38,465 nucleotides of DNA, from positions 1 to 38,465 of IMG/VR virus record IMGVR_UViG_3300046739_000253. One strand, 5' to 3'. Source of the DNA: a virus. Its lineage: Duplodnaviria; Caudoviricetes. Positions within the stretch are counted from its first letter, which is position 1; each line of letters begins with the position of its first letter. A model generated the notes under the pieces. It made no database searches. It saw only the letters and a list, made by a program, of their open reading frames with translations, and was not told the DNA's origin. A program made the position numbers and the translations under genes. Shown piece by piece: positions 12,973 through 36,730 of this stretch.

Positions 12973-12975
12973 GGG

Positions 12976-13445: not shown

Positions 13446-13447
13446 GA

Positions 13448-13749: not shown

Positions 13750-13798
13750 GGTCGTGTCTCCAGTGAAGGGCGGGGGCCGAAGCCCCCACCCGGATGAA

Positions 13799-14239
13799 CT
13801 ACTTGCTGCGCTTCTCGCGCCGCGCACGTCGGGCTGCGGCCTTCGCCGCTCGCGCGACCCGCGCCTTCTCGCGGACCTTCGGGTCGAGCAGCGGGTTCGG
13901 GCGCGTCGGCGCGTCCTGCTGCGCCTCGGCCAGCCGCTGGCCCTGCTTGCGCTTCGCGAGGTAGGCCACGGCGTCGCGCTGCCGGGCGATGACCTCGGTG
14001 ACGTGCGGCGGGAACACGATCCGCGTCGTGCGGTTCTTCGCGACGTGCTCCACGAAGAGGTAGTCGCCCTTGTCGAACCGCACGGTCTGGATGATGAACG
14101 TCTCGCTCGACACGATGTCGGTCGAGCGCACGGTCGCCGGGCGGGTCTGCGCCGCCTCCGGCAGCTTGTGCAGTTGCCCAAGCTGGTGGTCGAAGTTGTC
14201 TTGCCCTGAGTCGCCTGCCGGTCGGAGTGCTTTGGTCAT
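13799..14239 (-). CDS. Hypothetical early protein with a basic C-terminus
   Basis: CACTGGAG RBS with an upstream hairpin. K/R-rich tail. Confidence 0.75.
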   Translation of the reverse strand: MTKALRPAGDSGQDNFDHQLGQLHKLPEAAQTRPATVRSTDIVSSETFIIQTVRFDKGDYLFVEHVAKNRTTRIVFPPHVTEVIARQRDAVAYLAKRKQGQRLAEAQQDAPTRPNPLLDPKVREKARVARAAKAAARRARREKRSK

Positions 14240-14293
14240 CGTCGTCTCTCCAGTGGGGCGCGAGCACCATGCCCGCGCCCAGTCGTCCGTCGT

Positions 14294-15040
14294 CTACAGT
14301 CGGTCGTCGGCGGCAAGCTCCACCACCACGCGCCCGTCGTGGCGCGCCTCGCGCGGCGTGAAGCCGGGCTGCGCGTCATACGCGGCCTCGGCGACCTTCA
14401 CCCACGCGGCGACCTTGTCGGCGACCGGGGCCACGTTGACCACCGGCACGACCTTGGCGCTGCCCTTGGCCTTGTGCGGCAGGCCGTAGCGGCTCGCGCA
14501 CACCGGGCCGTAGCCGACCTCGACGCTGCCCTCGTCCGTCAGGCCGAGGCCGCAGAACGAGCAGCGGCCCGTCAGCGCGCCGTAGGCGGCACCAGCCGCC
14601 GCCGGGTCGGCCTCGATGGCCTGCAGCGTCGGCAGCAGGGCGTCCACGCCGTAGGCCGCGCCCTCGCGCGTCACCTTGCCCACGTACTCGCCGTTGAGCT
14701 TGACGTAGACGCTGCCGGGGTTGCGCGAGTCGTCGCCCGCCAGCGAGAGCAGAAGCTCGCCGTTGCCGGGGGCCGCGAAGCGCGTCTTGGGGAACTTGAG
14801 GCCGCGCTCACGCGCCGCCTTCAGGAAGGCCACCAGCCCGCTCAGGCTGACGACCGGGCGCGGGGCCGGGGCGACCGCAGACGCTGCCACCGCGACGGCG
14901 GCGAGCGCCTGCGCGGCTTGGCAGTCGCTCAGGTTGGCGTGCTTGGAGCCAGCGCCGCGTGCCCAGATGATGCTCTGGCCGGGGGTGATGGCTGACTTGC
15001 AGATGGTGCAGGTTCCGGCGAACTTCGCAGTGATGGTCAT
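14294..15040 (-). CDS. DUF6011-like Zn-finger protein
   Basis: N-terminal CTIC...H motif and YGALTGRCSFCGLGLTDEGSVEVGYGPVCA (CxxC-x3-LTD-x2-S-x3-G-x-GPxC). Start at 15040 behind CACTGGAG. Confidence 0.75.
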   Translation of the reverse strand: MTITAKFAGTCTICKSAITPGQSIIWARGAGSKHANLSDCQAAQALAAVAVAASAVAPAPRPVVSLSGLVAFLKAARERGLKFPKTRFAAPGNGELLLSLAGDDSRNPGSVYVKLNGEYVGKVTREGAAYGVDALLPTLQAIEADPAAAGAAYGALTGRCSFCGLGLTDEGSVEVGYGPVCASRYGLPHKAKGSAKVVPVVNVAPVADKVAAWVKVAEAAYDAQPGFTPREARHDGRVVVELAADDRL

Positions 15041-15087
15041 TGTCGTCTCCAGTGTCTCGGGGCGACCCAGCGCCGCCCCACCCAATG

Positions 15088-15117
15088 ATTAGACACCCAG
15101 CGGTAGGTTGCTGTCAA
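15088..15117 (-). promoter_or_regulatory. Sigma70-type leftward promoter PL3
   Basis: TTGACA-18 nt-TCTAAT, followed by a hairpin and the CACTGGAG RBS. Confidence 0.6.
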
Positions 15118-15146
15118 GCCCCCGTCAAACCTTGGGCTTTTCGGCC

Positions 15147-15497
15147 CTACGCCCGCCTCCCGCTCAGGACGCCGACGGCCTCGGAGGCCGCGCGTTCGAT
15201 GATGGCGGCGACGTAGCCCCGGCGCTCGCCGCACGCCTTCTCCGTCTCGCGGCGCAGCACGTCGGCCTTGTCGCGGGCGAGGTCGGTGATGACGGTCGCG
15301 GCCTCCTTCGCGTCGGCGACGATCTGCGCGGCCACCCGGTGGGCCGTGCTCGGCAGCATCGGCGACGGCAGGATGTCCGTCGCGATGTCGCGGACGATGG
15401 CGTCGCGCTGGTCGGCCAGCCACGGGCCGAGGTAGGTGTGCGGGCCGAGCTTCGCGATGAACGCGTCGAGGGCGGCGACTTCTAGGTCTTTGGTCAT
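15147..15497 (-). CDS. Hypothetical early protein, helical
   Basis: CACTGGAGACACGACC-ATG leader. Confidence 0.75.
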   Translation of the reverse strand: MTKDLEVAALDAFIAKLGPHTYLGPWLADQRDAIVRDIATDILPSPMLPSTAHRVAAQIVADAKEAATVITDLARDKADVLRRETEKACGERRGYVAAIIERAASEAVGVLSGRRA

Positions 15498-15521
15498 GGT
15501 CGTGTCTCCAGTGGTCGAGGG
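15495..15521 (-). repeat. 27-bp direct repeat, copy 1 (CCCTCGACCACTGGAGACACGACCATG); copy 2 at 15922-15948
   Basis: Exact match read from the sequence. The copies flank gene 15523-15924. Confidence 0.9.
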
Positions 15522-15522
15522 G

Positions 15523-15924
15523 TTAGAAACCGTTGCCGACGGGGAAGCCGAAGTGCGCCTTCAGCTTCGCGATCAGGTGCGACTCGGAGGTCGCGCCGAG
15601 CACCGCGCCGTCGCGGATGAGGACGCAGACGTTCGTCTCCAGTTGGCGCTCGCCCATGTAGGTCGAGGTGACGTAGAGGTCAAGCTCGGCGCAGCCCGGC
15701 GCGGCGGCGTGCGCGTCGATGGCCTTGATGGCGCGCAGCGCGACGAAGTCGCCGAGGTCGCTGTCGTCGGTCCAGTTCAGCGCGTTCGGCAGGTTCGCGC
15801 CGTCGCCGTTCGGCGAGCAGTCGCGCAGGCCGACCTCCGCGCAGGGCGCGAAGCCGCTGGTGTTCGCGCGGACGGCGGCGTTGATCGCCTTCCGCAGGGC
15901 CGGGGTGACGGGGATGCTGTTCAT
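15523..15924 (-). CDS. Hypothetical early protein
   Basis: Leader identical to that of the downstream gene. Confidence 0.75.
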   Translation of the reverse strand: MNSIPVTPALRKAINAAVRANTSGFAPCAEVGLRDCSPNGDGANLPNALNWTDDSDLGDFVALRAIKAIDAHAAAPGCAELDLYVTSTYMGERQLETNVCVLIRDGAVLGATSESHLIAKLKAHFGFPVGNGF

Positions 15925-15948
15925 GGTCGTGTCTCCAGTGGTCGAGGG

Positions 15949-16068
15949 TCAGAAGCTCTGCAGCCACGCGATCAGCGCGTCGGCGTGTGGCCTCGCCTGC
16001 TCGGGCTTGCCGCAGGCGAGGAAGGCGAACACCTTCGCGAGGTGGGTCGAGGCGGTCTGGCGGTCCAT
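15949..16068 (-). CDS. 39-aa early peptide MDRQTASTHLAKVFAFLACGKPEQARPHADALIAWLQSF (absent from the ORF track)
   Basis: Translated by hand. Has its own cUUCGg hairpin and CACTGGAG RBS. Its stop abuts the next repeat. Confidence 0.7.
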   Translation of the reverse strand: MDRQTASTHLAKVFAFLACGKPEQARPHADALIAWLQSF

Positions 16069-16074
16069 GTCAGT

Positions 16075-16113
16075 GTCTCCAGTGAGGCCGGGGGCCGAAG
16101 CCCCCGGCGGGTG
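16075..16113 (-). repeat. Hairpin-RBS repeat CACCCGCCGGGGGCTTCGGCCCCCGGCCT(T)CACTGGAGAC; near-identical copy at 18354-18393 and a variant at 13756-13790
   Basis: 9-bp stem with a cUUCGg tetraloop on the minus strand (6-bp stem in the variant), directly before the RBS. Confidence 0.9.
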
Positions 16114-16114
16114 G

Positions 16115-16495
16115 TCAGTCGTTGCGTCCGTTGGCGTCGCCGCGCCACGCCCCGGCGAGCTTCAGCGGCTCGGCGGCGAGGCCGAAGTGGTCAACCGGGT
16201 AGACGCCGACGCAGCGTGCGGCCTGCCAGACATAGCCCTCGGCGTTCTTGCGAGCGCCCGCCTCGGTGCGCGACCAGACGATGTGGTAGCGGACGCGCTG
16301 CGTGCCGGGGTGCGTCTTGCCTTGGTACTCGTAGGTTTCCGAGAGGGCCGGGTCGCCGATGCGGTTGCCCGTGACGCGTAGCCCGGCTTCCGGGTTCACG
16401 GCGGCTTCGGCGACGGCGGCGAAGCCGTAGGCGGTGCCTGACTTGCGGGTGAAGTTGCCGAAGGGGGTGTTGATGACGTTCGTGAGCTTTGCCAT
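16115..16495 (-). CDS. Hypothetical early protein (MAKLTNVINTPFG...)
   Basis: First gene after PL2. ATG lies 8 nt after CACTGGAG. Confidence 0.75.
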   Translation of the reverse strand: MAKLTNVINTPFGNFTRKSGTAYGFAAVAEAAVNPEAGLRVTGNRIGDPALSETYEYQGKTHPGTQRVRYHIVWSRTEAGARKNAEGYVWQAARCVGVYPVDHFGLAAEPLKLAGAWRGDANGRND

Positions 16496-16511
16496 TGGTC
16501 GTTCTCCAGTG

Positions 16512-16544
16512 TCTGGTGGGGCGACCCAACGCCGCCCCACCAGA
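16512..16544 (-). repeat. Leader hairpin GGGGCGGC-G(C/T)TGG-GTCGCCCC; second copy at 15059-15079
   Basis: 14-bp stem here and 8-bp stem at 15059. Both lie between a promoter and CACTGGAG. Confidence 0.85.
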
Positions 16545-16546
16545 AG

Positions 16547-16576
16547 AGTATGCGCCCAAACCTAGCGGACTGTCAA
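16547..16576 (-). promoter_or_regulatory. Sigma70-type leftward promoter PL2
   Basis: TTGACA-18 nt-CATACT. Confidence 0.65.
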
Positions 16577-16581
16577 CCCCC

Positions 16582-17523
16582 TCATATTCCCTCGAAAACT
16601 GCCATCAGCTTGTCTCGCAGCGCCTGACGACTGCCGCGCAGGGCGGCGTTCTGGGCGCTCAGGCCGACCAGTTGCTCGCGGGCCAGCCCGAGAACCGCCA
16701 CGGCGTCGTCCAGCATCCGCAGCAGTTCGGTGAGCGAGGTGTCCACTGCCGCCTCGGTCGTCGCCCCAGCGGCCACCAGCGCGGCCACAGAGGGCTTCTG
16801 GGGCAGGTCGGCGGCGACCGCCTCCAGCGCCGCCTGCGCCCCCGGCGTGACCGTCAGGGTCGGCACGTTGGCCGGGTCGAGGCGCATCGACAGCAGGTCG
16901 GGCACGTCAGGCGGCACCGGGGTGTGCTTGAGGCGCTCCTCCTCCAGCGCCCGCTCGATGCCCCGGCGCACGACGCTGACGGTGGACTGCACCGACACCA
17001 GCGTCGTCGTAAACCCGTGCGTGTAGGCCGACCGCAGCAGGCGCTCGGCCTCGGCCTTCTGGTGGCCGTGGTCGCTGCCGTAGACGTAGTTGCGCTCGAT
17101 GAAGCTGAACAGCGACCCGGTCCACTTCTCGCTCGGGGCGTCGGGGTGCTTCGGCGTCTCCAGTGTCTTCGGTTGCAGCGGCTGCAGCAGGCGGCGCACC
17201 TCGCCGGTCCCGAGCAGCGCCGGGTGGACGAAGGTCTGCGTCCCCTTCGCGAGGTCGCAGACGCGGCGGTGCTGTCGGTGGCCGATCCACTTGAAGAACA
17301 GCACGACGCCGATGTCGCCGCGCAGGTTCGCGGCCTTGTCGATCTCCGGCCCCTCTGAGGGCCAGAGGCAGATGCGCGGGTCGTCGGCGACCCACTGCGG
17401 CAGGTTGCCAGCCTTTGTCCCAACGATCAGGATCCGCCGTTGGTTTGCGACCGCGTCGAGGATGGCATTGGCGACGGGTTCACCGGGTGGTAGCAGGTCA
17501 CGAAGTGGCGTTGACATGGTCAT
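16582..17523 (-). CDS. DUF2325-like N-terminal domain plus C-terminal coiled coil
   Basis: RILIVG...VVLFFKWIGH......DLAK...G resembles DUF2325. AAGGAG RBS before the ATG at 17523. Confidence 0.55.
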   Translation of the reverse strand: MTMSTPLRDLLPPGEPVANAILDAVANQRRILIVGTKAGNLPQWVADDPRICLWPSEGPEIDKAANLRGDIGVVLFFKWIGHRQHRRVCDLAKGTQTFVHPALLGTGEVRRLLQPLQPKTLETPKHPDAPSEKWTGSLFSFIERNYVYGSDHGHQKAEAERLLRSAYTHGFTTTLVSVQSTVSVVRRGIERALEEERLKHTPVPPDVPDLLSMRLDPANVPTLTVTPGAQAALEAVAADLPQKPSVAALVAAGATTEAAVDTSLTELLRMLDDAVAVLGLAREQLVGLSAQNAALRGSRQALRDKLMAVFEGI

Positions 17524-17858
17524 GCTCCTTTTCGAGCGTATCGAGCGCGTTTCCGAGCCGCCCGGCAGACGAGGCAGGCTTGATGCCCGCTGCCGAGTAG
17601 AACGTAGGCGTGCCCCTTCGGGCAGTGTGTGTGTCGAGGCTTGTGGTGCCGCCCGTGGGCAGCGCCAGACATCAGGGCGAGGTGGTTCGGGTTGATGCAC
17701 GCGCGGACGCCACAGCGGTGGTGGACGCACTGCCCCGGCGGGATCGGCCCGACGAACACCTCGTAGGCGAGGCGATGCACCCGCCAGAGACGACCGGCGT
17801 GCTTCACCACGCCGTAGCCGTCAGGGCGGCGAGTGCCGGTCCAGAGCCAGCACTTCAC
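17520..17858 (-). CDS. HNH endonuclease
   Basis: CWLWTG...GYG...VHRLAYE...GPIP...VHHRCGVRACINPNHL, plus a THCPKGH...CLVC tail. Confidence 0.9.
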   Translation of the reverse strand: MKCWLWTGTRRPDGYGVVKHAGRLWRVHRLAYEVFVGPIPPGQCVHHRCGVRACINPNHLALMSGAAHGRHHKPRHTHCPKGHAYVLLGSGHQACLVCRAARKRARYARKGA

Positions 17859-18349
17859 AGTGCATCCTCCTGCGCGACCGCCGCGAGGGCGGGGAGCGCG
17901 GCCCGCACGCGCTGCTGGACCGCTGCGATGCGGGCAGCGGCCTCGGCAGGCGACGGCAGGGGCTTGCCCGAGACGAGGCTGACGGCGGCGCTGGGGGGCG
18001 TAGGACGGGTCGGGGGCACCGGGCGGGGCACACGCGCGCCGCCGGGCAGGTTCGTGCTCTGGCGGGCCGCAGGAGCCGCCGGAGGGGCCGTCTCAGCGAC
18101 GACCGGCTGCGCGAGCGCCTGCGCCAGTTGGTGCCGCACGGCGTGCCACCGGGCGCGCACGGCGTCGGCGACATCCGGGGCGGTCACGGCGACCAGCGAG
18201 AAGTGGAGGGCCGACGCCTGCTGCTCGCGGTCGAGCAGGCCGACGGGGACGCCCTCGGTGACGAGGTAGCAGAACGCGCGGAGGCCGAACGCCTCGGCGG
18301 TTTCGCCGGGCTGCTGCCGGGCGAGGACGGGGATGCGGGGGAAGCTCAT
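17855..18349 (-). CDS. Hypothetical early protein with a Pro/Ala-rich linker
   Basis: Hairpin plus CACTGGAG leader. Confidence 0.7.
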   Translation of the reverse strand: MSFPRIPVLARQQPGETAEAFGLRAFCYLVTEGVPVGLLDREQQASALHFSLVAVTAPDVADAVRARWHAVRHQLAQALAQPVVAETAPPAAPAARQSTNLPGGARVPRPVPPTRPTPPSAAVSLVSGKPLPSPAEAAARIAAVQQRVRAALPALAAVAQEDAL

Positions 18350-18398
18350 GGTCGTCTCCAGTGAAGGCCGGGGGCCGAAGCCCCCGGCGGGTGAGGTG

Positions 18399-19409
18399 TT
18401 ACGCCGCCACCAACTGGCGGGCCTGCGTGAGGGCGAGCACCTTGACCTCGGCGTTCGCGCCGAAGAGGGCCGACTCGTTCGCCCGCTGGCGACCGCTGAC
18501 CGAGGATGCCTCGGCAGGACGGACGTGGTCGAAGTACTCCGTGACGGCGTTGTAGACCGACCACGCGTTCGGGTCGCCGCCGGTCAGGACGGTCGCCTGC
18601 TCGACGCCGACGCCTTCGAAGACCAGCCGCGACACCGTCGCCCGGCGCTTCGCCAGCGTGTCGTTGACGACCAGCTTGCCGCCGACGACCTCGCCGGGGA
18701 ACACCGACTCGATGTAGGCGATGACCTCGCTCGGGTTCAGCTTGCGCTGGGCCAACTGCTTGAAGCTCTCGCCCGTGGCGATCAGCGACTTGGTCAGGCC
18801 GGTGAAGAGCGCCCGCGCCTGCTCGACGCGCGACGCCGCCGACGTGGTGTGGCGGATGCTCACGACGTTCGCGTGGGCCTCGCTGCGGGCCAGCGCGATG
18901 GTGTTCTGGCAGACCGCGCGGGTGCCGGTCGCGATGATCTTCACCGCGCCGCTGCCGTCGTGCGACCACGTCAGGAGCGCGTAGCCCTGCACGCTGTCGC
19001 CGTTGCCGGTGACATCGACCGTCGCCCCGGCCAGCCGCACCAGCGCCCAGAGCCGCTCGCCGCGCCCGAGGGAGCCGATGACCTCGATGGTCGCGCCCAG
19101 TTCCTCGACCGCCGTCTCCAGAATCGAGACGGCCTGCCGGTTCTGCACCGCCGCGTAAGACGGGCCGACCACCGCCAACTGCGCGAGGTCGGTCGAGCGC
19201 CGGGCCAACTGGCCGAGCGGGATGAGCGAGCCGGTGCCGTCGTAGAGCGGCTCAAGGATGACGGTCCAGTCGAGGCCAGCCGCCGCGAGCGACTGGTCGA
19301 TGGAGTAGCGCACGTCGCCGCGTAGGCGGGTGCCGAGGCCGTGCCACGGGGTCGAGCCGATGTAGGCGATGGACGACTGGCCGTTGATGGTTGCGATGTT
19401 GTGAGCCAT
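18399..19409 (-). CDS. DUF932 / TIGR03299-family phage-plasmid protein
   Basis: MAH...PWHGLG, AAGLDW.V, Y..VQN, GSL..G...W, SHDGS, R.VCQNT, RHT, AWSVYNAVTEYFDH. Confidence 0.9.
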   Translation of the reverse strand: MAHNIATINGQSSIAYIGSTPWHGLGTRLRGDVRYSIDQSLAAAGLDWTVILEPLYDGTGSLIPLGQLARRSTDLAQLAVVGPSYAAVQNRQAVSILETAVEELGATIEVIGSLGRGERLWALVRLAGATVDVTGNGDSVQGYALLTWSHDGSGAVKIIATGTRAVCQNTIALARSEAHANVVSIRHTTSAASRVEQARALFTGLTKSLIATGESFKQLAQRKLNPSEVIAYIESVFPGEVVGGKLVVNDTLAKRRATVSRLVFEGVGVEQATVLTGGDPNAWSVYNAVTEYFDHVRPAEASSVSGRQRANESALFGANAEVKVLALTQARQLVAA

Positions 19410-19442
19410 TGGTCTGATCTCCAGTGAACGAGGGTTGACGAG

Positions 19443-19688
19443 TTAGCGGACGCGGACGGCGAACTTCTTGCCGCCGCCGAAGGTCGGGACGACGTAGGTC
19501 GTGGCGCTCAGGCCCGCGCGGTGCGCGAGCGTGACGGCGGCGCTCACCGCGTGGTCATCGAAGCTGGTCAGCGTGACGCTCTTCGGGTTGATCTGGATGC
19601 GGAGGGCGTGCAGCAGGGCGTCGTTCGCCTCGACGGCGTTGATGAACTTCTGCTGGGCGGCTTCGGCGGCAGCGGTGAGCTTCGTCAT
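19443..19688 (-). CDS. First early gene, hypothetical (MTKLTAAAEA...)
   Basis: Directly after PL1, a hairpin and CACTGGAG. Confidence 0.75.
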   Translation of the reverse strand: MTKLTAAAEAAQQKFINAVEANDALLHALRIQINPKSVTLTSFDDHAVSAAVTLAHRAGLSATTYVVPTFGGGKKFAVRVR

Positions 19689-19734
19689 CGGTGTCTCTCC
19701 AGTGCGTCGCCGCGACAATCGCGACGACCTGCCA

Positions 19735-19765
19735 AGTATACGTCGAAACCTAGCCACCGCGTCAA
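19735..19765 (-). promoter_or_regulatory. Sigma70-type leftward promoter PL1
   Basis: TTGACG-19 nt-TATACT (long spacer). Confidence 0.6.
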
Positions 19766-19816
19766 GCCCCCCTAAACATTGGGCTTTTCTCTCGTTTCGG
19801 CCCGTCCTGCAGATAC

Positions 19817-19847
19817 TTGCTGCAGCGCACGCGGGACGTGGCATCCT
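19817..19847 (+). promoter_or_regulatory. Rightward promoter, probably giving a leaderless mRNA
   Basis: TTGCTG...TGgCATCCT (extended -10) ends 7 nt before the ATG at 19855. No SD is present. Confidence 0.45.
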
Positions 19848-19854
19848 ACTCCCC

Positions 19855-20127
19855 ATGACGAGAGACGACCTCATCGCGGCACTGGCGGCGTCGCCCAAAC
19901 GGGGGCGGCTGACGCTGCTCCTGAAGCTCATCCCCCAGCCTGCGGCGCTCATCGCCAAGCGGGCGGGCATCGGGCGGGCGTCGCTCTACCGCGAGGCGAC
20001 GATGTCCCTCGCCCTGAAGCTGCGGGTGGCGCGGGTGGTCCGCGTGCCCGCGTCGATCATCTGGCCGGAGACAGCGACGCTCGCGTTCGAACTGCTCTAC
20101 GGCTTTGGGGGAGGGAAACGGCGATGA
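19855..20127 (+). CDS. Cro/Ner-like helix-turn-helix regulator
   Basis: AALIAKRAGIGRASLYR...RVARVVRVPASIIWP. First gene of the divergent rightward operon. Confidence 0.7.
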   Translation: MTRDDLIAALAASPKRGRLTLLLKLIPQPAALIAKRAGIGRASLYREATMSLALKLRVARVVRVPASIIWPETATLAFELLYGFGGGKRR

Positions 20128-20426
20128 AGAAGAGCAAGGTAGACGACACCGGGACGCTGCAGGAGGCGCGCGTGATCAACGCGCTGGTCAGCGACGTGAC
20201 GCTGACGCTGGCGAAGCCCGAGGCCGGGACGGTGGCCGAGGTCGGCGACGACAAGTTCGTGCGCGTCGGGCCGCTGGTCACCGACGTGAGCGCCGCGCTG
20301 GGCGTGACCGAGGAGAACGTGCGGATGGCCCTGACCGCCGCCGTGAGTCAGGGGCTGCTGGAGGTGCCGCCGTCACTGCCGGTGAGCGAGCACCCGATCA
20401 CGCTGGTCAGGCCGGGGACGTTGTGA
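20124..20426 (+). CDS. Hypothetical protein, possible winged HTH
   Basis: ATGA coupling. VTDVSAALGVTEENVRMAL...QGLLEV pattern. Confidence 0.55.
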   Translation: MKKSKVDDTGTLQEARVINALVSDVTLTLAKPEAGTVAEVGDDKFVRVGPLVTDVSAALGVTEENVRMALTAAVSQGLLEVPPSLPVSEHPITLVRPGTL

Positions 20427-20680: not shown

Positions 20681-21066
20681 CCGACTGTGTGCTCTGGCCC
20701 GGCTACGTGATGCCCAACGGCTACGGGCAGGCGTATGACCCTGCCCGGTATCTCGCAGGCGAGCGCCCGCAGGTCTACGCGCATCGCCTCGTCTACGAGC
20801 AGCACGTCGGGCCGATCCCGGCGGGGCACGAAGTGCATCACCGTTGCGGGGTGAAGGCGTGCGTGAACCCCGCGCACCTTGAGGCGCTGACCTACTCCAC
20901 GCACAAGCGCACGCACCGGAGCGTCTGCAAGAACGGCCACGCCATCGACGGCGACAACATCAGCCGCTGGTCGGCTCGCGACGGACGCGAGCACCGCCAG
21001 TGTCGAACCTGCTACAACGCGCGGATGCGTGCCTTTCGCGCACGCCGCACTGGAGAAGCCCGATGA
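20677..21066 (+). CDS. HNH endonuclease
   Basis: CVLWPG...NGYG...AHRLVYE...GPIP...VHHRCGVKACVNPAHL, plus CKNGH...CRTC. Confidence 0.9.
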   Translation: MTDCVLWPGYVMPNGYGQAYDPARYLAGERPQVYAHRLVYEQHVGPIPAGHEVHHRCGVKACVNPAHLEALTYSTHKRTHRSVCKNGHAIDGDNISRWSARDGREHRQCRTCYNARMRAFRARRTGEAR

Positions 21067-21947
21067 CCGAAGAACAGCAGCCGCCCACCCCGGCGGTCGA
21101 GAGCGGGGTGTTCGCGCACTCCCCCACGTTTGCCAAGCTCGCCGCCGCGCTCGCGAAGGCGCAGGCCAACTACGGCGACCTGAAGGCGTCGCAGGTCGCT
21201 GACGCCGAGAAGTACGTCTACAAGTACGCCGACCTCGCGGCGGTGCTCGCGGCGGTGCGCCCGGCGCTGAACGCAGCGGGCATCGCGCTGTTGCAGGGCG
21301 TCGCCATGCAACGCCCGCAGGGCAGCAGCGGGCTGATCGTGCTGGTCGAGACGCGCCTGATCGACCAGTCGGGCGAGTGGCTGGCGACGACCGTGAAGCT
21401 CCCGAGCGGCGAGGTCGCGCCGCAGAAGGTTGGGTCGCTGGTTTCATACCTTCGTCGGTATGCCCTGCTCGCGATGGTCGGGGTCGCTGCCGAGGACGAT
21501 GACGGCAAGGAGGCCCAGCAGGCCGCACCGCCGAAGCGCACGGCCCCGCCTGCGCCGCCGAAGACGCAGCCCGCGACCGCCAAGCCGGTGGCCGCGCCCA
21601 AGCCGGTGCCCGCGACGCCGCCTGCCGAGGAGCGCGTCGAGCCGCGCGTCATCGCCGACCCGGTGCGCGAGGACGGGGTCCGCATCAGCGCGAAGGACCG
21701 GGGCTTGCTCTTCAAGGTGGCGAAGGAGCAGGGGCTGAACGAGACGCAGGTCAAGCAGTTGATCTTCGCGCTCTGGGGCTACACCTCGACCGGGGCCATC
21801 CTGCAGGGCGCGCAGTTCGGCAAGCTGCTCTCGGCGATGGAGAACCCGCAGGACCACGGCGTCACCATCGGCAACGGCGACCTGACCTACGACCGTGCGC
21901 AGGACGCCAACCCGCTGCCGGGCAACCCTGACCTCGGGGGACTGTGA
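21063..21947 (+). CDS. erf: ERF-family single-strand annealing protein
   Basis: LAAALAKAQ, YKYADL, SGEW, PQKVGSLVSYLRRYAL...EDDDG. Start at 21063 behind CACTGGAG. Confidence 0.9.
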   Translation: MTEEQQPPTPAVESGVFAHSPTFAKLAAALAKAQANYGDLKASQVADAEKYVYKYADLAAVLAAVRPALNAAGIALLQGVAMQRPQGSSGLIVLVETRLIDQSGEWLATTVKLPSGEVAPQKVGSLVSYLRRYALLAMVGVAAEDDDGKEAQQAAPPKRTAPPAPPKTQPATAKPVAAPKPVPATPPAEERVEPRVIADPVREDGVRISAKDRGLLFKVAKEQGLNETQVKQLIFALWGYTSTGAILQGAQFGKLLSAMENPQDHGVTIGNGDLTYDRAQDANPLPGNPDLGGL

Positions 21948-22198
21948 TGGCGAAGGCACGCGCGCCCCGTGCGGGGCCGAAGGTCTACGCCAAGCAGTTG
22001 GTCATCGAGGTGCCCAAGGCGATGCTGGAGGAGGCCGCGCAGCAGGCGTGGCCTGACCTCGTCACGCTGGCCGAGGGCGCAGGCTGGCGGGTCCGCGACA
22101 CCGACGACTACCTCTGGTGCAGCAAGGACCACGCGCTGCTGCGGCAGGGCACCGACGAGATGCGCGGCATCCCGGTGCTGCTGTTTCAAAACTGGTGA
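21947..22198 (+). CDS. Hypothetical protein
   Basis: TGATG coupling at both ends. Confidence 0.6.
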   Translation: MAKARAPRAGPKVYAKQLVIEVPKAMLEEAAQQAWPDLVTLAEGAGWRVRDTDDYLWCSKDHALLRQGTDEMRGIPVLLFQNW

Positions 22199-22782
22199 TG
22201 CCGACGCTGCACTTCGACCACGAAACCCACACCTTCTGGCGCGAGGGCCAGCGGGTGCTGGGCGTCACTGAGATCCTGCGGCGGTGCCGCCTGACCTCGC
22301 CCTACTGGACCGTCGAGGCCCGCAACCGGGGCACGCGCGTCCACAAGGCGCTGCACGTCCTGCAGACGCTCGGGGACGCCGAGGCCCGCGCGCATCTGCT
22401 GGCGGGCGACCTGCCGTTCTACGCGGCGGGCGTGCGGGCGCTGGACACGTTCGGCATCGAGGTGCTCGGGGCCGAGGAACTGGTGGACGGCGGCAGCTAC
22501 GCGGGCTGGCTGGACCTGCGCTGCCGCCTCCGGGGGCGCGACCTGCCGATGGTCATCGACTTCAAGACGGGCCGCGCCGCGCCGTGGACGCCGCTCCAGT
22601 TGGCCGCGTATGCTGCCCCGCAGCCGACGCCGCACGACCGGGCGTTCATCGAACTGCTCCCGTCGGGAGCGCCGAAGCTGACGGTCTGCCGCGAGCATCG
22701 CGGCGACCTGCGGCACTTCAACGCCTGCGTCGCCGTGGCGCAGTTGCAACTGGCACTGGAGATCCCTGATGGCGAAGACTGA
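22198..22782 (+). CDS. PD-(D/E)XK (Cas4/RecB-like) phage exonuclease
   Basis: FDHETHTF...GVTEIL, RGTRVH, YAGWLD, VIDFKTG, LQLAAY. Confidence 0.85.
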   Translation: MPTLHFDHETHTFWREGQRVLGVTEILRRCRLTSPYWTVEARNRGTRVHKALHVLQTLGDAEARAHLLAGDLPFYAAGVRALDTFGIEVLGAEELVDGGSYAGWLDLRCRLRGRDLPMVIDFKTGRAAPWTPLQLAAYAAPQPTPHDRAFIELLPSGAPKLTVCREHRGDLRHFNACVAVAQLQLALEIPDGED

Positions 22783-23470
22783 GACGCTCGTCGTGTTTGA
22801 ACCCGCCACGCACATCGACCTCGCCGAGGTGGCGACGTGGGTGGTGGACGGCCCCGAGACGGCGGAACTGGCCGTCGAGTATCGCGAGGGCGTCAAGGCG
22901 CTCATCCGCGAGATCGAGGCGGGCTACAAGCCGCACGTCGCCCGCGCCCACGCCGCGCACAAGGCGCTCTGCGAGGAACTGCGCCTGCGCCTGCTGCCCT
23001 GCACGGTCGCGCTCGACGCGCTGAACCGGGCCATCGGCAGCTACGAGGTGGCGCGGCAGCGGGCCGAGGAGAAGGCCCGGCGCGACGCGGAGGCGGCGGC
23101 ACTGGCCGACGCGGAGGCCGCACGGGCGTCGGATGCCGAGGCCGCACGGCTGCGCGGGAACACGGCGCTGGCGGCGTCCATCGCCTCGGCCCCGGTCGAG
23201 GAGTTCATGGCCCCGGTGGTCGTGCCCCCGACGAAGAAGACCTCGGGCGTCGCGGTGACGGTCACCTACGAGCCGGTGGTCGAGGACTTCGACGCGCTGC
23301 TGCAGTTCGCGGCGGCGAGCGACAGCGCGATGCGTCCGCTGCTGGTGCAGGCGAACCTGAAGGGGCTGCAGGCGCTGGTCGATCAGATGGGCGAGGGGTT
23401 CAATGTGCCCGGCGTCACGCGCGTGATGCGGACCCCCACCGTTCGTAGCACGCGCGCGGGGCGTTCCTAG
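22769..23470 (+). CDS. Coiled-coil protein of phage recombination modules, function unknown
   Basis: Long helical body and a C-terminal V.D...L...VPGV motif. CACTGGAG RBS. Confidence 0.65.
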   Translation: MAKTETLVVFEPATHIDLAEVATWVVDGPETAELAVEYREGVKALIREIEAGYKPHVARAHAAHKALCEELRLRLLPCTVALDALNRAIGSYEVARQRAEEKARRDAEAAALADAEAARASDAEAARLRGNTALAASIASAPVEEFMAPVVVPPTKKTSGVAVTVTYEPVVEDFDALLQFAAASDSAMRPLLVQANLKGLQALVDQMGEGFNVPGVTRVMRTPTVRSTRAGRS

Positions 23471-23480
23471 ATTTTGTGGC

Positions 23481-23550
23481 TTGCGCCTGACCGGCGCGAG
23501 GACCGAGAATCGTGCCCGACGCGCCGAGTGGGGTCAGCGCGTCGGGTCTT
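23481..23550 (+). promoter_or_regulatory. Putative promoter and leader hairpin of the replication operon
   Basis: TTGCGC-18 nt-GAGAAT, then the stem CCCGACGCGC...GCGCGTCGGG followed by TCTTT. Confidence 0.4.
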
Positions 23551-23578
23551 TCCCGGTTGCCAACGTGAGGTGAGCACG

Positions 23579-23797
23579 ATGACGGCACAATCCTATCAGA
23601 CCGCGCCCGAGCTTGCGAGGGAACACCTCGCGCTCTCTGAGCACACCTTGGCCGAGGAGGTCGCCCGCTACCGCGAGGCGCTCTACCGCAGCCTCGACCT
23701 GCTGCACGACACCCTCCAGTCGTTCGACACGCTGCAGGGGCGCTACGAGCGCCTCCTGACCGAGAACCGCGCCCTGCGGGCCGAGTCGCGGGCGTGA
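23579..23797 (+). CDS. Small coiled-coil protein
   Basis: GAGGTGA RBS. GTGA overlap with the helicase gene. Confidence 0.65.
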   Translation: MTAQSYQTAPELAREHLALSEHTLAEEVARYREALYRSLDLLHDTLQSFDTLQGRYERLLTENRALRAESRA

Positions 23798-25107
23798 ACA
23801 AGCCGCTGCCGACCGGCGACGACCTCTTCAGCCGCGACCCCTCGCGCACCTTCCGGGTGGTCGAGGACACCTACCGCTACACGGCGCTCGACGGCGCGGT
23901 GGAACTGCGGATCACCGGGCTGCACCGCGAGCGCGGGCACCTCATCGGCGAGATCACCGCCCGCACCAGCCTGCCCGGCGCACGCACGTTCGGCAAGGAC
24001 GGCACGACGCTGTTCACGGAGCGGGTCAACCTGATGTTCGCCCGCGACAAGCAGTCCCTCGCCCGTAACTGCGCCATCCGCGCCGCGACCAACCCGCGCG
24101 ACGTGCGCTGGGAAGACCTCATCGAGGACTTCGTCCAGCGCGTCATCGACACCGAGAAGGAGGGCGAGCCGCTCGCGTGGATCCACGCCGCCGCCCGCAC
24201 GCCGCCTGACCGCTGCGTCACCGTCTACGGGATGCCGATCTACCTCGACCACCCGCAGGTCTTCTTCGGCCAAGCGGCCACGGGCAAGAGCATGATCGCG
24301 CTGGCGATGCTCGGGGAACTGGGGCGGCTCGGCATCAGGAGCCTCATCCTCGATTGGGAGATGGAGATCGGCGTCCACAAGGACCGCTTCGACGCGCTCG
24401 GCCTGCCGCCGACCATCGCCCATATGCGCTGCGCCGCGCCCCTGACCGTCATCGCCGACGCCGTGAAGCAGCGGTGCAGCGAGGCCGACATCCAGTTCCT
24501 CGTCATCGACTCGGCCATCCTCGCGTGCGACGGCAAGCCCGAGGACAGCATCGTCGCCAAGGACTTCCACGCCGCCCTGCGCCGCATCGGGCGCGGCTCC
24601 CAACTGATCGCCCACACCCGCGCCGAAGACCCCGGCAACGCCCGCGAGCCGCAGCAGCAGCGCCCCTTCGGCTCCGTCGTCTGGCACAACAGCGCCCGCG
24701 CCACATGGTTCGTCAAACGCGTGAACGCCGAGACGGACCTCGCCCACATCAACAACGGGATCTACAACCCGAAGGCCAGCTTCCGGGGCACCACGCCGCC
24801 CTACGGCCTCGCGCTCGACCTGACCGAACGGGGCGACGGCACCCTCGACAACATCACCGTGCGCCGCACCAACCTCGCCGACGAGCCGGAACTGGCCGCG
24901 ACGCTGCCCATCCCGGCCCGTATCTACGCCGCCCTCGCCTCCGGCAAGATGACGCAGGCCGAACTGGTCGAGCAGACGGGCGCGAAAGCGTCGTCCGTCA
25001 AGGCGAACCTCCACCGCTACAAGGGCACCAAGTTCACCCTCATCACCAGCGACCGGGACGGGGTCCACCGCTGGGGGCGGCTGGAGGGTCGCCACGATGA
25101 CGAGTAA
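23794..25107 (+). CDS. SF4 / RepA-like (AAA_25) replicative helicase with C-terminal winged HTH
   Basis: Walker A GQAATGKS, Walker B FLVIDS, LIAH, PFGSVVWHNSAR, and MTQAELVEQTG...SVKANLHR. Confidence 0.85.
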   Translation: MNKPLPTGDDLFSRDPSRTFRVVEDTYRYTALDGAVELRITGLHRERGHLIGEITARTSLPGARTFGKDGTTLFTERVNLMFARDKQSLARNCAIRAATNPRDVRWEDLIEDFVQRVIDTEKEGEPLAWIHAAARTPPDRCVTVYGMPIYLDHPQVFFGQAATGKSMIALAMLGELGRLGIRSLILDWEMEIGVHKDRFDALGLPPTIAHMRCAAPLTVIADAVKQRCSEADIQFLVIDSAILACDGKPEDSIVAKDFHAALRRIGRGSQLIAHTRAEDPGNAREPQQQRPFGSVVWHNSARATWFVKRVNAETDLAHINNGIYNPKASFRGTTPPYGLALDLTERGDGTLDNITVRRTNLADEPELAATLPIPARIYAALASGKMTQAELVEQTGAKASSVKANLHRYKGTKFTLITSDRDGVHRWGRLEGRHDDE

Positions 25108-25113
25108 GACCCC

Positions 25114-25213
25114 GTCACAGTGTGACCGTCACACTGTGACCAAACCGTTCTGTCACACCCACCCTCCCTCCCTTTAGGGAGGGTGTGACGGTCGTCGCAG
25201 TCACGTCACACCC
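25114..25213. repeat. Putative replication origin: GTCACA/TGTGAC iterons and nested palindromes
   Basis: GTCACAGTGTGAC-C-GTCACACTGTGAC (perfect 13-bp inverted repeat), GTCACACCC...GGGTGTGAC around CCCTCCC-TTTA-GGGAGGG, and further GTCAC copies. Directly after the helicase stop. Confidence 0.65.
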
Positions 25214-25226
25214 ACTGGAGCATCGC

Positions 25227-25463
25227 ATGACCACCGACCGCCCCGCGCTCGTCCCGTATCCGCTCAACGCCGTGTTGGCGTTCCTCACGAAAGGCACCCC
25301 GCTGCCCGATGTCGCGCCGCCCATCACGATCCTCACGATCTCCGAGGGCCAATGGACGACCGTCCATCGCGTCGGCTACGAGGAGTTCGGGACCATCCTG
25401 CTGGAACTGGACGACAACGAGCAGCCCCTGCGGGCCTACCGCAAGCCGGAGCCACGGGCGTGA
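25227..25463 (+). CDS. Hypothetical protein (MTTDRPALVP...)
   Basis: CCCACTGGAG RBS. Confidence 0.7.
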   Translation: MTTDRPALVPYPLNAVLAFLTKGTPLPDVAPPITILTISEGQWTTVHRVGYEEFGTILLELDDNEQPLRAYRKPEPRA

Positions 25464-25759
25464 GCTTCAAGCGCGGGGAACCCGTCCACCTCTGGTGGCG
25501 CAAGCAGGTCGTCGCCAGTCGCGTGCTGGAGGTTCGCAGACGCCTGCTCGTCGTCGCAGGACCGGAGGGGCCACTCACCGTGCCTCGTCAACGCGTCTGG
25601 CGTCCCTCGGAGCGCCCAGAGCTTCACCCCGGAAAACCGGGGCCGCGCCCGCGATGCGACAATCGAGCTTCCCCTCCGGGGGGAACGGGGGGGTTCCGAG
25701 GGGGCTGTCGGTTCTCCGACACCCACCTTCGCTCGAAAAGCGAAGCGCCTCCGTGGTGA
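25460..25759 (+). CDS. Hypothetical protein
   Basis: GTGA coupling. The C-terminal half is low-complexity and may be under DNA-level constraint. Confidence 0.4.
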   Translation: MSFKRGEPVHLWWRKQVVASRVLEVRRRLLVVAGPEGPLTVPRQRVWRPSERPELHPGKPGPRPRCDNRASPPGGTGGFRGGCRFSDTHLRSKSEAPPW

Positions 25760-25858
25760 AGAGATCTCAGGGGGGGCCGCTACTACCCCCGTCTGGACGC
25801 GGTCGCGTTCAACGTGGGGCAACCTAGCGGTCTACAGCCCCATGTCCGGTTGTGGGAT

Positions 25859-25871
25859 TATCAACAACTTA
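25859..25871 (+). promoter_or_regulatory. IHF consensus site
   Basis: TATCAACAACTTA matches WATCAANNNNTTR, in an AT-rich intergenic region. Confidence 0.55.
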
Positions 25872-25997
25872 CGGGTGGTGAGAATCTTTTCACAGTGTGC
25901 CATTCTGAGACACGCGTGGCACACTTCATGTTAGGTGCTGGAAGTTGTTGCAAACGCGCCACTTCGCGGTAAGGGTCAAGTGCCCTAACGTCCAAAT

Positions 25998-26384
25998 ATG
26001 CGAAAAGCCCAATGTTTCGTGCCCGGTCGCCCGGTGCCCCAAGGGTCGATGCGGTCGCTCGGGAAGGGGCGCATGACGCACAACAGCGTCCATCTCAAGG
26101 CGTGGCGCACCGCCGTCGGCTGGGCCATGCGGGCCGCGCTGGGCACCGAGCCGCCGACCGAGGGCGAGGTCTGGATGAAGCTCCACTTCGTCGTCCAGCC
26201 CCGGCGGCAGGGCGACGCGCCCGACCTCGACAAGCTGGTGCGGGCGGTGCTCGACGCCCTAACGGGCATCGCCTATCTGGACGATAAGCAGGTCGTCGCC
26301 ATCAACGCCCGGCGCACGCTGCTCGGGCCTGACGCGCTCGCCAGCGACCGCGAGGGCGTCACCATCGAACTGGAGCCGCGATGA
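25998..26384 (+). CDS. rusA: RusA-family Holliday junction resolvase
   Basis: VPGRPVPQGS...PDLDKLVRAVLDALTGIAYLDDKQVV. Confidence 0.92.
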   Translation: MRKAQCFVPGRPVPQGSMRSLGKGRMTHNSVHLKAWRTAVGWAMRAALGTEPPTEGEVWMKLHFVVQPRRQGDAPDLDKLVRAVLDALTGIAYLDDKQVVAINARRTLLGPDALASDREGVTIELEPR

Positions 26385-26899
26385 GCAGCACCGAGCCGTT
26401 CGACCTCGTCAGCCACCCCGACGCGCACTCCAACCTGCTGCGCGAGCGGCTGCTGCAGTTGTCGCTGGCCTCGGCGCTGGCGCTGCCCGGCGAGCGGTGC
26501 GTGGTCAGCGCCCGCGACCTGCACGACGTGACGACGCAGGCGCTGGACCTGACGCAGGAACTGCTGATGCTGCGGCGCTGCCTGATCGTGTTCATGCGCG
26601 CGTCGCACGTCGAGGCGCTCGCGCTGCCGTTCGCCGAGACGGTGCTGGCCTCGACGGTGCCGCTGCGCGTGAAGCACGACCCGCACGCGCTGCCCGACCT
26701 GCTGCAGTTGCTGCTCGACGGCGAGGGCTTCGTGACGGTCAGCAGCAGCGCCTACGCGTCGCCTCCGGCGCTGTTCGACAGCGAGGGCCAGAGCGAGGCC
26801 GCGCGGCTCAGGGCGGCGCTCATCGAGGCGCGGCAGGCCATCGTCAACGCGGGCGGCAGCGACACGGTGCTGGCGCTCATCGACGTGAGCTTGCGGTAG
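26381..26899 (+). CDS. Hypothetical protein
   Basis: AACTGGAG RBS and ATGA coupling. Confidence 0.65.
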   Translation: MSSTEPFDLVSHPDAHSNLLRERLLQLSLASALALPGERCVVSARDLHDVTTQALDLTQELLMLRRCLIVFMRASHVEALALPFAETVLASTVPLRVKHDPHALPDLLQLLLDGEGFVTVSSSAYASPPALFDSEGQSEAARLRAALIEARQAIVNAGGSDTVLALIDVSLR

Positions 26900-26910
26900 G
26901 ATACCCAGCC

Positions 26911-27324
26911 ATGCCGCACCGCCTGCTGCTCGCGCTGCCCCTGCTCGGTCTGCTGGCGGGGTGCTCGACGCTCTGCGGCTGCTCCGAGGACAAGAGCGTC
27001 TCCGTCATCGCGCCCGACCCGCCTGCGCCGCCGCCAGCGGTCCACGTCATCGACTTCCACGTCACGGGGACGGACCCCGGCACGGTGGAGATCACGCTCA
27101 CGTCGAGCACCGAGGGGACGAGCACGATCCGCACGAACCTGCCGTGGTTCTCGACGCTGAAGACCACGCGCACGTCGAGCTTCCTCTCGCTGTCGGCGAA
27201 GGACCGCGACTTCTTCAGCGGCACCATCACGGTGCAGATCTTCGTGGACGGGCAACTGTTCCGCGAGGCGAGCGTGACGGGGTTCAACCCGGTCGCAGCC
27301 ATCGACGGCACATGGACGAACTGA
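26911..27324 (+). CDS. Lipoprotein with an MmpS-like beta-sandwich domain
   Basis: Signal peptide with lipobox LLAG-C and a Pro linker. FHVTG...LPW...LSA...ITVQIFVDG pattern. Confidence 0.65.
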   Translation: MPHRLLLALPLLGLLAGCSTLCGCSEDKSVSVIAPDPPAPPPAVHVIDFHVTGTDPGTVEITLTSSTEGTSTIRTNLPWFSTLKTTRTSSFLSLSAKDRDFFSGTITVQIFVDGQLFREASVTGFNPVAAIDGTWTN

Positions 27325-27785
27325 TCCGCGTGCGGCTCATCGGCTACCTCGGTCGCCCGGCGTTCATGGTGCGGCAGCAGCCTCGGCGCATCGGGCGGGC
27401 GGGGCTGCGTCCGTCGGTGACGCAGGACGAACTGGTGTCGCTGCACGCGTGGTTCCGCATCCCGCGCCGCGAGATCGACGCGGTGGTGGTGGCGCGGCAG
27501 GCCGCAGACCGGGCACGCGGGGCGGTGAACAAGGCGGTGGCGGCGCACGCGCACGGCGGGCTGTCGCCGTTCGACGCGGAGTGGCAGGGCGCAGCCGCCG
27601 AGTGTGCGGCGAGCCGGTGGCTGGGTCAGCCGGTGCGGACGCACGCGCCCGACCTCGGCTGGGACTTCCTGCACGACGGCAGGACGCTCGACGTGAAGGG
27701 CACGGCGCATCGAGACGGGGTGCTCTACTTCCCGTCGCTGGCCGCGTTCAAGGCCGACGAGGCTGCGCTGGGGGTGATCGCGTGA
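27312..27785 (+). CDS. Hypothetical protein, possible PD-(D/E)XK nuclease fold
   Basis: G..AE.A...WL...WDF.....LDVKGT. Confidence 0.45.
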   Translation: MDELIRVRLIGYLGRPAFMVRQQPRRIGRAGLRPSVTQDELVSLHAWFRIPRREIDAVVVARQAADRARGAVNKAVAAHAHGGLSPFDAEWQGAAAECAASRWLGQPVRTHAPDLGWDFLHDGRTLDVKGTAHRDGVLYFPSLAAFKADEAALGVIA

Positions 27786-28135
27786 AGCCTGCGATGCCCG
27801 ACATGGCCGACACGGTCTTCTGCGCCCTCGCGCATCTGCCCGACCTCGGCGCGGCGTTCGCGCTCAACGGCGAGGGCGAGGCGCTGCTACGGCTGTCGCT
27901 GGACCCGGCGAGTGTGGCCGGGCTGACCGACGTGCTGCAGGCGCTGCGGAACCGCACGTTCTACGTCGCGCTGGTCGCGACACCGAAAGGGGCACGCCAT
28001 GCCCGTGAAGACGAAGGCACCGGATCGGTTTCCGAATCGGAACCGCAAGCCGAGGAAACCCCGGAAGCCGAGGGGCCGCGCCCTCGCCGCCGCCGCCGAG
28101 TACCTGCTGACAAACCCGACCGCCGCACTCATTGA
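27782..28135 (+). CDS. Hypothetical protein
   Basis: GTGA coupling. Its 3' end overlaps the next ORF by about 135 nt. Confidence 0.45.
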   Translation: MKPAMPDMADTVFCALAHLPDLGAAFALNGEGEALLRLSLDPASVAGLTDVLQALRNRTFYVALVATPKGARHAREDEGTGSVSESEPQAEETPEAEGPRPRRRRRVPADKPDRRTH

Positions 28136-28463
28136 CAAGCACACCGGCAAGCCGGATGGCGAGCGGATCATCGAGGCGCTGAGTGTGCTCGCGACGGGGA
28201 CGGGCGAGCAGGTCGCGAAGTTCTTCGGCGGCTACTACCGGCTGCGGGCGCGGGACCGGCAGGCGGCGCTCAACGTGCTGGAGCAGCGGCGCTTCGGGCG
28301 GGTGCCGCAGATCGATGAGGTGCCGAGCGAGCACCGGCCCACGACCATCGTGAACGTGTTCACGACGAGCGAGGAGTTTGCGTTCGTCACCGCGCAGCAG
28401 CCGAAGCTGGTTGGCTCGACGCGCGCGTTGCCCACTGGAGAGCCTGATGACCGAGACGGCTGA
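27999..28463 (+). CDS. Putative terminase small subunit
   Basis: Basic N-terminus, helical core ending R..A...LE.R.FG..PQ and a beta tail. Lies upstream of the large subunit. Confidence 0.45.
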   Translation: MPVKTKAPDRFPNRNRKPRKPRKPRGRALAAAAEYLLTNPTAALIDKHTGKPDGERIIEALSVLATGTGEQVAKFFGGYYRLRARDRQAALNVLEQRRFGRVPQIDEVPSEHRPTTIVNVFTTSEEFAFVTAQQPKLVGSTRALPTGEPDDRDG

Positions 28464-30916: not shown

Positions 30917-30945
30917 CTCGTCCCTCAAACTGGAGCACCGAACCC

Positions 30946-36698: not shown

Positions 36699-36724
36699 CA
36701 GTCGAGGCCACGCAGCCGTAACCT
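36695..36724 (+). promoter_or_regulatory. Sigma70-type promoter of the capsid operon / leader RNA
   Basis: TTGACA-18 nt-TAACCT, same spacing as PL2 and PL3. Confidence 0.7.
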
Positions 36725-36730
36725 CATCGC

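Follow-up and report, generated by a model that had tools for sequence, protein, structure and literature searches.

This analysis concerns an extended Shine-Dalgarno (SD) motif, CACTGGAG, and a predicted hairpin RNA that carries its complement, both encoded by a tailed virus known from the record IMGVR_UViG_3300046739_000253 (Duplodnaviria; Caudoviricetes). The stretch of DNA that we analyzed, referred to below as the window, is the whole virus record of 38,465 bases with a GC content of 70%. Its genes, and their division into early and late, stem from a simple caller of our own, with timing inferred from gene position. According to protein family searches, the late block, which reads rightward, encodes the large terminase, an SU10-type portal, the major capsid protein and an internal virion protein. 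Small genes (DUF932, DUF6011 and HNH among them) make up a leftward block at positions 12275-19688, and Erf, the exonuclease-like genes and RusA lie together in one rightward block. No match to integrase, partition, repressor or antirepressor families was found among the 54 proteins scanned, and no tRNA was found in the window. The phage is podovirus-like and unrelated to the cluster K mycobacteriophages; its capsid protein shares about 30-35% identity at best with those of cultured phages.

The window contains 17 exact copies of CACTGGAG, compared with a mean of 1.35 in shuffled sequences (largest value 5; none of 100 shuffles reached 17). The earlier note on this DNA had listed 14 of them, and all of these were recovered at their coordinates and on their strands, 6-9 nucleotides (nt) ahead of a called start codon (Table 1). 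They mark 14 of the 35 non-structural genes and none of the 19 late genes (Fisher p=0.0009), a confinement that upholds its reading of the motif as an extended SD sequence used on both strands. We also confirmed the two AACTGGAG variants that it had noticed at 26368 and 30928, as well as the three copies said to be embedded in the preceding coding sequence (21048, 22754 and 28433). When set against a codon-aware null of the kind that had been proposed, these three copies within the last 36 nt of a coding sequence exceed every one of 2000 synonymous-codon draws, the mean of which is 0.05. Three further exact copies lie away from starts: two within genes (6386 and 17158) and one, at 36771, reversed in a hairpin.

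Table 1. Coordinates of the motif copies, the capsid-operon leader elements and the adjoining head genes in the window (aa, amino acids).
Feature	Position	Strand	Remarks
CACTGGAG	13758..13765	-	8 nt ahead of ATG of 77-aa gene 13749-13516; UUCG hairpin precedes
CACTGGAG	14248..14255	-	8 nt ahead of ATG of 146-aa gene 14239-13799
CACTGGAG	15047..15054	-	6 nt ahead of ATG of DUF6011 gene 15040-14294
CACTGGAG	15506..15513	-	8 nt ahead of ATG of 116-aa gene 15497-15147
CACTGGAG	15933..15940	-	8 nt ahead of ATG of 133-aa gene 15924-15523; 28-nt block identical to that at 15506
CACTGGAG	16077..16084	-	8 nt ahead of ATG of 39-aa gene 16068-15949
CACTGGAG	16504..16511	-	8 nt ahead of ATG of 126-aa gene 16495-16115; promoter-like site 16576 upstream
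CACTGGAG	18356..18363	-	6 nt ahead of ATG of 164-aa gene 18349-17855
CACTGGAG	19419..19426	-	9 nt ahead of ATG of DUF932 gene 19409-18399
CACTGGAG	19697..19704	-	8 nt ahead of ATG of 81-aa gene 19688-19443, first of the leftward block
CACTGGAG	21048..21055	+	In end of HNH gene; 7 nt ahead of ATG of Erf-like annealing protein gene 21063-21947
CACTGGAG	22754..22761	+	In end of exonuclease-like gene; 7 nt ahead of ATG of gene 22769-23470 (PHROG exonuclease match)
CACTGGAG	25213..25220	+	6 nt ahead of ATG of 78-aa gene 25227-25463
CACTGGAG	28433..28440	+	In end of gene 27999-28463; 6 nt ahead of ATG of gene 28447-28776
AACTGGAG variant	26368..26375	+	In end of rusA; 5 nt ahead of ATG of gene at 26381
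AACTGGAG variant	30928..30935	+	10 nt ahead of ATG of gene at 30946; late block, an exception
Sigma-70-like promoter candidate TTGACA-N18-TAACCT	36695..36724	+	Read by eye, under scan threshold; similar sites in relatives
Long predicted hairpin RNA, candidate antisense RNA	36730..36816	+	About 85 nt, 5' part of capsid-operon leader; z -4.86
Invariant hairpin tip UUACUCCAGUGG, containing motif complement CUCCAGUG	36768..36779	+	From leader alignment
Predicted H-type pseudoknot with covarying pairs	36879..36921	+	Second conserved leader element
156-aa gene directly before capsid gene	36983..37453	+	Conserved, without motif; no family match
Major capsid protein gene	37485..38402	+	SD sequence TAGGAG, without motif

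The reversed copy at 36771 presents the motif complement CUCCAGUG on the plus strand, at the tip of a long hairpin predicted in the 284-nt spacer ahead of the capsid operon. This hairpin begins a few bases past the promoter candidate TTGACA-N18-TAACCT and is predicted to form a single rod-like structure, more stable than any of 200 shuffled versions (z -4.86). Its tip reads TTACTCCAGTGG in 11 of 11 distinct leaders, the window included, from phages with a capsid identity of at least 96%. After near-duplicates were left out, 7 of these 11 leaders were aligned, and the 12-nt tip is the sole invariant run in an alignment with a mean column identity of 53%. The stems around it diverge with compensatory changes, double changes being present in 9 of 18 consensus pairs. 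Of the two strands, the complement-bearing one has the better fold in all 11 genomes compared and more G-U pairs in 9 of them, and it is therefore favored as the functional one. The promoter and terminator scan of the window reported neither the site at 36695 nor a terminator after the hairpin. Rfam offered no match for the hairpin at gathering score, only a chance-level hit to PreQ1-III (E 1.7). In three relatives (L009, L010 and L188) we noticed a second CTCCAGTG copy in the leader about 86 nt past the tip; its position varies in others.

Downstream of the hairpin, the leader holds the predicted pseudoknot, one helix of which changes from GTTGGCC/GGCCAAC to GTCGGCC/GGCCGAC in 6 of 13 sequences; 84% of the cells are paired, a value reached by none of 500 shuffles, and Rfam returned no match. 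This element could possibly act as a translational operator for the head genes, the first of which (the 156-aa gene) likely encodes a head accessory protein. In the distant relative L028, the promoter-proximal position ahead of the pre-capsid gene is taken by a tRNA-like sequence, seen by eye. The gene that precedes the leader matches only unnamed viral clusters and therefore gives no lead toward an RNA chaperone.

Eighteen relatives were fetched as whole genomes; 11 genomes, the window included, lie at a capsid identity of at least 80%, and 8 are distant, at 49-61%. Our tree resolves G004, a clade of G002, G003 and G005, and the clade of the window; G001, for which no portal protein was paired, and G014 are not placed. 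Sister phages use other start motifs, namely CCGAGGA in G001, CGAGGGAG and CCGAGGAG in G002 and G003, GAGGGAG in G005, and ACTGGAGGA in G004, and the motif switches with the clade ahead of orthologous genes (DUF932, DUF6011, Erf and the 116-aa gene). In 10 of the 11 genomes with a capsid identity of at least 80%, the top 7-mer of the early initiation regions is complemented in the phage's own leader; the leader of G005 complements the third-ranked early 7-mer, not the top one. A leader-by-genome matrix scored with 8-mers is largely block-diagonal. Each leader fits its own early genes at 15/35, 12/30, 5/15, 14/33, 5/7, 11/34, 10/34, 9/37, 10/38, 6/43 and 6/19, counts that 0-13 of 500 shuffled leaders reach, and leaders tested against the early genes of the other of the two main clades score 0-4. 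None of the 8 distant relatives has a dominant start motif or a matching complement. Two short contigs (L148 and L017) have other SD-complementary seeds (CTTCCTCA and CTCCCTCAGG) in the leader that precedes their pre-capsid gene, and these sequences predict that further motif versions should exist. In several relatives, the gene before a conserved late gene ends in CTGGAG followed by the stop codon (G001:17722 and G006:15150 in capsid-oriented coordinates). The gene end at G001:17722 is a full complement of the hairpin tip of the window, and the window itself, reading CTTGGAG at 35824, does not match. This gene end is possibly the origin of the seed, or else a chance resemblance.

Energy estimates are compatible with pairing between the two partners. 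The predicted duplex of 8-9 bp would nucleate at the UCCA loop, open two U-G pairs and cover GGAG. For the seed of the window we calculate an opening cost of 5.4 kcal/mol and a bare duplex energy of -14.4 kcal/mol; a generic 16S tail, which may not be that of the host, gives -6.4 kcal/mol for its bare duplex with the motif. After opening of both partners, estimated net binding amounts to -4.0 to -6.5 kcal/mol at all 14 sites of the window, and the median net binding is favorable in 10 of 11 genomes. These values are sums of opening energies, used in place of a whole-molecule co-fold. That co-fold, in which binding to a loop cannot be represented, gave 0 to -3.2 kcal/mol for the entire hairpin with initiation regions and did not tell motif genes apart from the rest.

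We consider it probable, at roughly 0.6, that the leader hairpin RNA pairs in trans with the shared SD motif, which would serve as a barcode, and thereby blocks initiation on early and middle mRNAs. The earlier note had offered three explanations (an RNA near 36731, an RNA-binding protein or nuclease, and an unusual host anti-SD), and we favor the RNA, given that the complement sits at a conserved hairpin tip and that, from one sister phage to another, it varies in step with the motif. Transcription would start from the TTGACA-N18-TAACCT site, and the antisense element would act either within the abundant capsid mRNA or as a small RNA processed from it. Its seed would pair with CACTGGAG of the 14 non-structural genes, and ribosome loading would be blocked across the group. 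With the late promoter active and genome copies increasing in number, the RNA would build up and bring about an early-to-late translational shut-off, with the CACU extension conferring specificity in such a way that late genes and nearly all host genes are spared. Judged by the comparative sequence evidence, the arrangement resembles SD-occluding antisense control, and the case for an RNA as the reader is strong. A wider proposal, tentative and in our estimation somewhat short of even odds, is that the early-to-late switch runs on a re-programmable RNA code, in which the private SD barcode of a whole regulon and the antisense domain of the late leader that reads it are rewritten jointly from clade to clade; the start-associated sequences (SAS) of K1 mycobacteriophages may have the same explanation. 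Our literature search, the coverage of which mostly excluded subscription journals, found no paper on a phage RNA that complements an SD barcode common to early genes.

Several observations weigh against this interpretation. The hairpin transcript and its 5' end are predicted, the early and late classes follow from gene position, and the leader promoter resembles the early ones, which leaves its late timing a presumption. The U-run past the hairpin is variable among leaders. Exposure of the seed differs between predicted folds: in the window clade it is half exposed, with 4 of the 8 complement bases in the open loop; in G004 it is exposed; and in G002 it is buried in the basal stem, with a net energy of +2.9 kcal/mol. 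In the predicted folds of G001 and G002 the complement pairs with an internal motif copy, and binding in G001 is marginal (median net -1.7 kcal/mol). The complement lies at the tip in the window clade and G004 and at the 5' end in G001-G003 and G005, and because of this shift the leader RNAs may not be homologous. Moreover, the matrix is imperfect. The leader of G004 fits 9 of 38 early genes of G003, the case of G005 is weak (13 of 500 shuffles score as high), late genes match in some relatives (up to 5/33 at 8 nt), and in G006 and G014 the gene preceding the leader has a 9-nt match ahead of it. Since the genomes form only about three lineages, independent joint changes are few; a single major one is seen, accompanied by a small number of lesser ones.

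The same pairing could serve a different end if the leader promoter, which is sigma-70-like as the early ones are, were a constitutive host-type promoter. The RNA would then confer immunity or superinfection exclusion (or a carrier state), and the barcode of a clade would define an exclusion group. Codes that are clade-specific suit this idea, as does the precedent of the c4 RNA of phages P1 and P7, the specificity of which resides in 4 nt of the RNA and its targets (PMC5320573). We nevertheless regard it as unlikely: the 54 proteins scanned include no integrase or partition gene, the capsid genes would share the promoter, and the barcode is invariant over a whole clade, whereas codes for immunity should presumably diverge more quickly. 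Reversing the direction of control, early mRNAs might bind the leader and switch its fold through termination, processing or read-through, which would make the leader a sensor that gates capsid expression. The internal pairing in G001 and G002 resembles a strand-displacement switch, and the predicted pseudoknot provides a second structured leader element. A sensor, however, would require neither so many copies (14) nor a position exactly over the SD core, and coding sequence has retained three of the copies at SD distance; we deem this reading rather improbable. A phage protein might instead read the motif, be it a RegA-like repressor, a RegB-like nuclease or a DNA-binding regulator, the reversed copy being an operator, an opposite-strand decoy or incidental. 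T4 provides the precedent, with RegB cutting GGAG in early SD sequences and RegA repressing about 30 mRNAs (PMC3014915); most early proteins of the window lack a family match, and the minus-strand reading of the tip would display the motif itself. Yet searches of Pfam, PHROGs and NCBIfam yielded no RegA/RegB-like protein, although a remote analogue could escape them; G-U pairs and folding energy favor the complement strand (11 of 11 for the fold); and the two registers in which the G003 targets pair, with and without a bulge, suit RNA pairing better than a fixed operator. The protein option of the earlier note is accordingly disfavored and to us quite improbable. The CsrA/RsmA consensus contains ANGGA; the motif does not, and a CsrA/RsmA site was dropped as a candidate.

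Spread of the motif by duplication or gene conversion of intergenic cassettes, with no partner at all, would account for the longer blocks shared by leftward copies (28 nt between 15506 and 15933, 19 nt with 13758) and for the repeated UUCG and GGTGGGGCG hairpins. Longer shared cassettes do underlie part of the repetition in the leftward block. Such spread is very improbable as a general explanation, given that the four plus-strand copies have at most 11-12 nt in common with any other copy, that three of them lie in coding sequence, and that duplication leaves the matching complement of each clade unexplained. We give hardly any credence to the motif being the ordinary SD sequence of the host or fitting an unusual 16S tail complementary to CACUGGAG. 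What speaks for it is that host prediction, one of the checks put forward at the outset, yielded no host with a 16S tail to inspect: cultured phages are distant in the capsid, and DUF932 homologues gave no useful host. But the late genes of the same phage never carry the motif (0/19) and other motifs are found in sister phages with a capsid identity of 86-88%, so that the unusual host anti-SD is disfavored as well. Furthermore, such starts are rare in two candidate phyla. In the one to which a Polyangia metagenome bin belongs, each of 151 genomes has 1-60 occurrences of CACTGGAG-N4-10-ATG, and a few of them go above the reversed control, which GGAG would lead one to expect; in the one to which a Bryobacterales bin belongs, the 59 published genomes have 0-10 occurrences each of a narrower pattern (two unpublished ones were left out). 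The Polyangia bin contains two phage contigs of the same clade, G021:C758 (L231) and L125, and C758 carries the motif at 5 of 11 genes. One of the contigs is a related piece of 8 kb, the other covers an early region; the latter holds only phage-like genes, and neither was seen to be flanked by genes of a host, so their placement in the bin may be a hint of the host or mis-binning.

The earlier note had compared the motif with the SAS of cluster K mycobacteriophages, a likeness that holds for placement and for restriction to non-structural genes and does not extend to the sequence itself. According to the published descriptions, the SAS stands at the SD position of 11-19 non-structural genes, is asymmetric and over-conserved, reaches beyond the bases that pair with 16S rRNA and has no known function (PMC3203893, PMC11373665, PMC12699233), and an SAS-like motif is also reported for Microbacterium cluster EF (PMC7302621). 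The motif of the window is likewise over-conserved, asymmetric and placed at the SD position (14 copies, 6-9 nt before ATG) of non-structural genes only, whereas CACTGGAG and the SAS consensus GGGATAGGAGCCC have only GGAG in common. ESAS-like 17-bp inverted repeats as in cluster K were not noticed in the window, where no dedicated repeat search was made; short hairpins stand upstream of its motif copies. Pope et al. point out that four K1 phages have one SAS in reversed orientation and away from a start, and they leave the reader open (PMC3203893). We predict a 10-11 nt unpaired anti-SAS hairpin loop on a variable stem in 4 of 12 cluster K phages (Anaya, Adephagia, Shaobing and LilPharaoh). 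In Anaya, the reversed SAS is located in the spacer that precedes the three final genes, and its fold over 106 nt is no better than shuffles (z -0.8). For Adephagia, PMC11373665 reports that late transcription starts in the spacer holding the reversed SAS, and it tabulates gene 39 as Hfq-like by structure search; its product is a candidate chaperone, should the anti-SAS loop be functional. Against a shared mechanism, the loop is degenerate in 3 of 12 phages and absent in 5 of 12 with the SAS still unchanged at 9-16 copies. The prediction that an altered loop goes along with an altered SAS is thus refuted for cluster K, the SAS being unchanged in the 8 of 12 phages without an exact loop; in the group of the window, by contrast, motif and complement change together. 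Even with G-U pairs allowed, no convincing relocated anti-SAS loop was found in Pixie, Chris, TM4 or Amohnition, and AnnaSerena has no reversed SAS copy of at least 10 nt. We regard the cluster K parallel as partial.

Other known systems share parts of the proposed arrangement. The c4 RNA has three stem-loops with two recognition loops, is processed by RNase P and controls an antirepressor operon. Bacterial trans-acting small RNAs such as RNAIII and RsaE of S. aureus use a short loop seed to occlude the SD sequence of many mRNAs. Similarly, the leader hairpin of the window offers an 8-nt seed complementary to 14 initiation regions encoded elsewhere; unlike the targets of RNAIII and RsaE, these all belong to one phage genome and are tagged with the same dedicated barcode, and the RNA itself forms the leader of a structural operon. 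As reported, the c4 RNA of about 80 nt uses its loops to pair with short sites over a ribosome-binding site, and RNA and target differ together (PMC5320573). Leader RNA and targets differ together between related phages here as well, but the RNA of the window is predicted to be one rod-like hairpin with one seed for 14 genes on both strands; it has no Rfam C4 match, and no antirepressor, repressor or integrase family is matched among the 54 proteins. The leader RNA would work like c4 and is not a member of the c4 family. As in our proposal, RegB and RegA of T4 act after transcription to shut off many early mRNAs at their initiation regions, with GGAG as the RegB target (PMC3014915). RegB and RegA are proteins, whereas specificity in the window appears to lie in an RNA seed and the bases 5' of GGAG.

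Additional elements accompany the motif in the leftward block. A GC-rich UUCG hairpin without a U-run is repeated directly ahead of the motif at 18390, 16110 and 13786 (minus strand), possibly a processing or stabilizing element and a recombination cassette. Sigma-70-like promoter candidates were noticed on the minus strand at 16576-16547, 19765-19735 and 15117, and near-identical 5' hairpins (16541 and 15082), each followed by the motif, come after two of the leftward candidates. The sequence AAAAGCCCAANGTTT is repeated at 19788 (minus), 15141 (minus) and 26003 (plus); two of its copies immediately precede promoter-like TTGAC sites in the leftward block. It may be an operator or UP element. 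The region 25100-25990, behind a 437-aa gene, is long, mostly non-coding and lower in GC, with short TCACAC/GTGTGA repeats; it is a possible replication origin.

Over-conserved start motifs in phages had no assigned reader, and papers from 2024 and 2025 still call their role unknown. Here, a candidate reader is present in the same genome as the motif and changes with it, which opens the question to a compensatory-mutation test, and the parallel loop of Adephagia and Anaya lies in cultured, genetically tractable phages. If our interpretation is true, one RNA, rather than proteins of the RegA/RegB type, would exert translational shut-off over a whole regulon. The phages of this group would then represent natural, near-orthogonal pairs of ribosome-binding site and antisense RNA, a source of orthogonal ribosome-binding site and repressor pairs for engineering, and the SAS of K1 mycobacteriophages, unexplained since 2011, may share the device.

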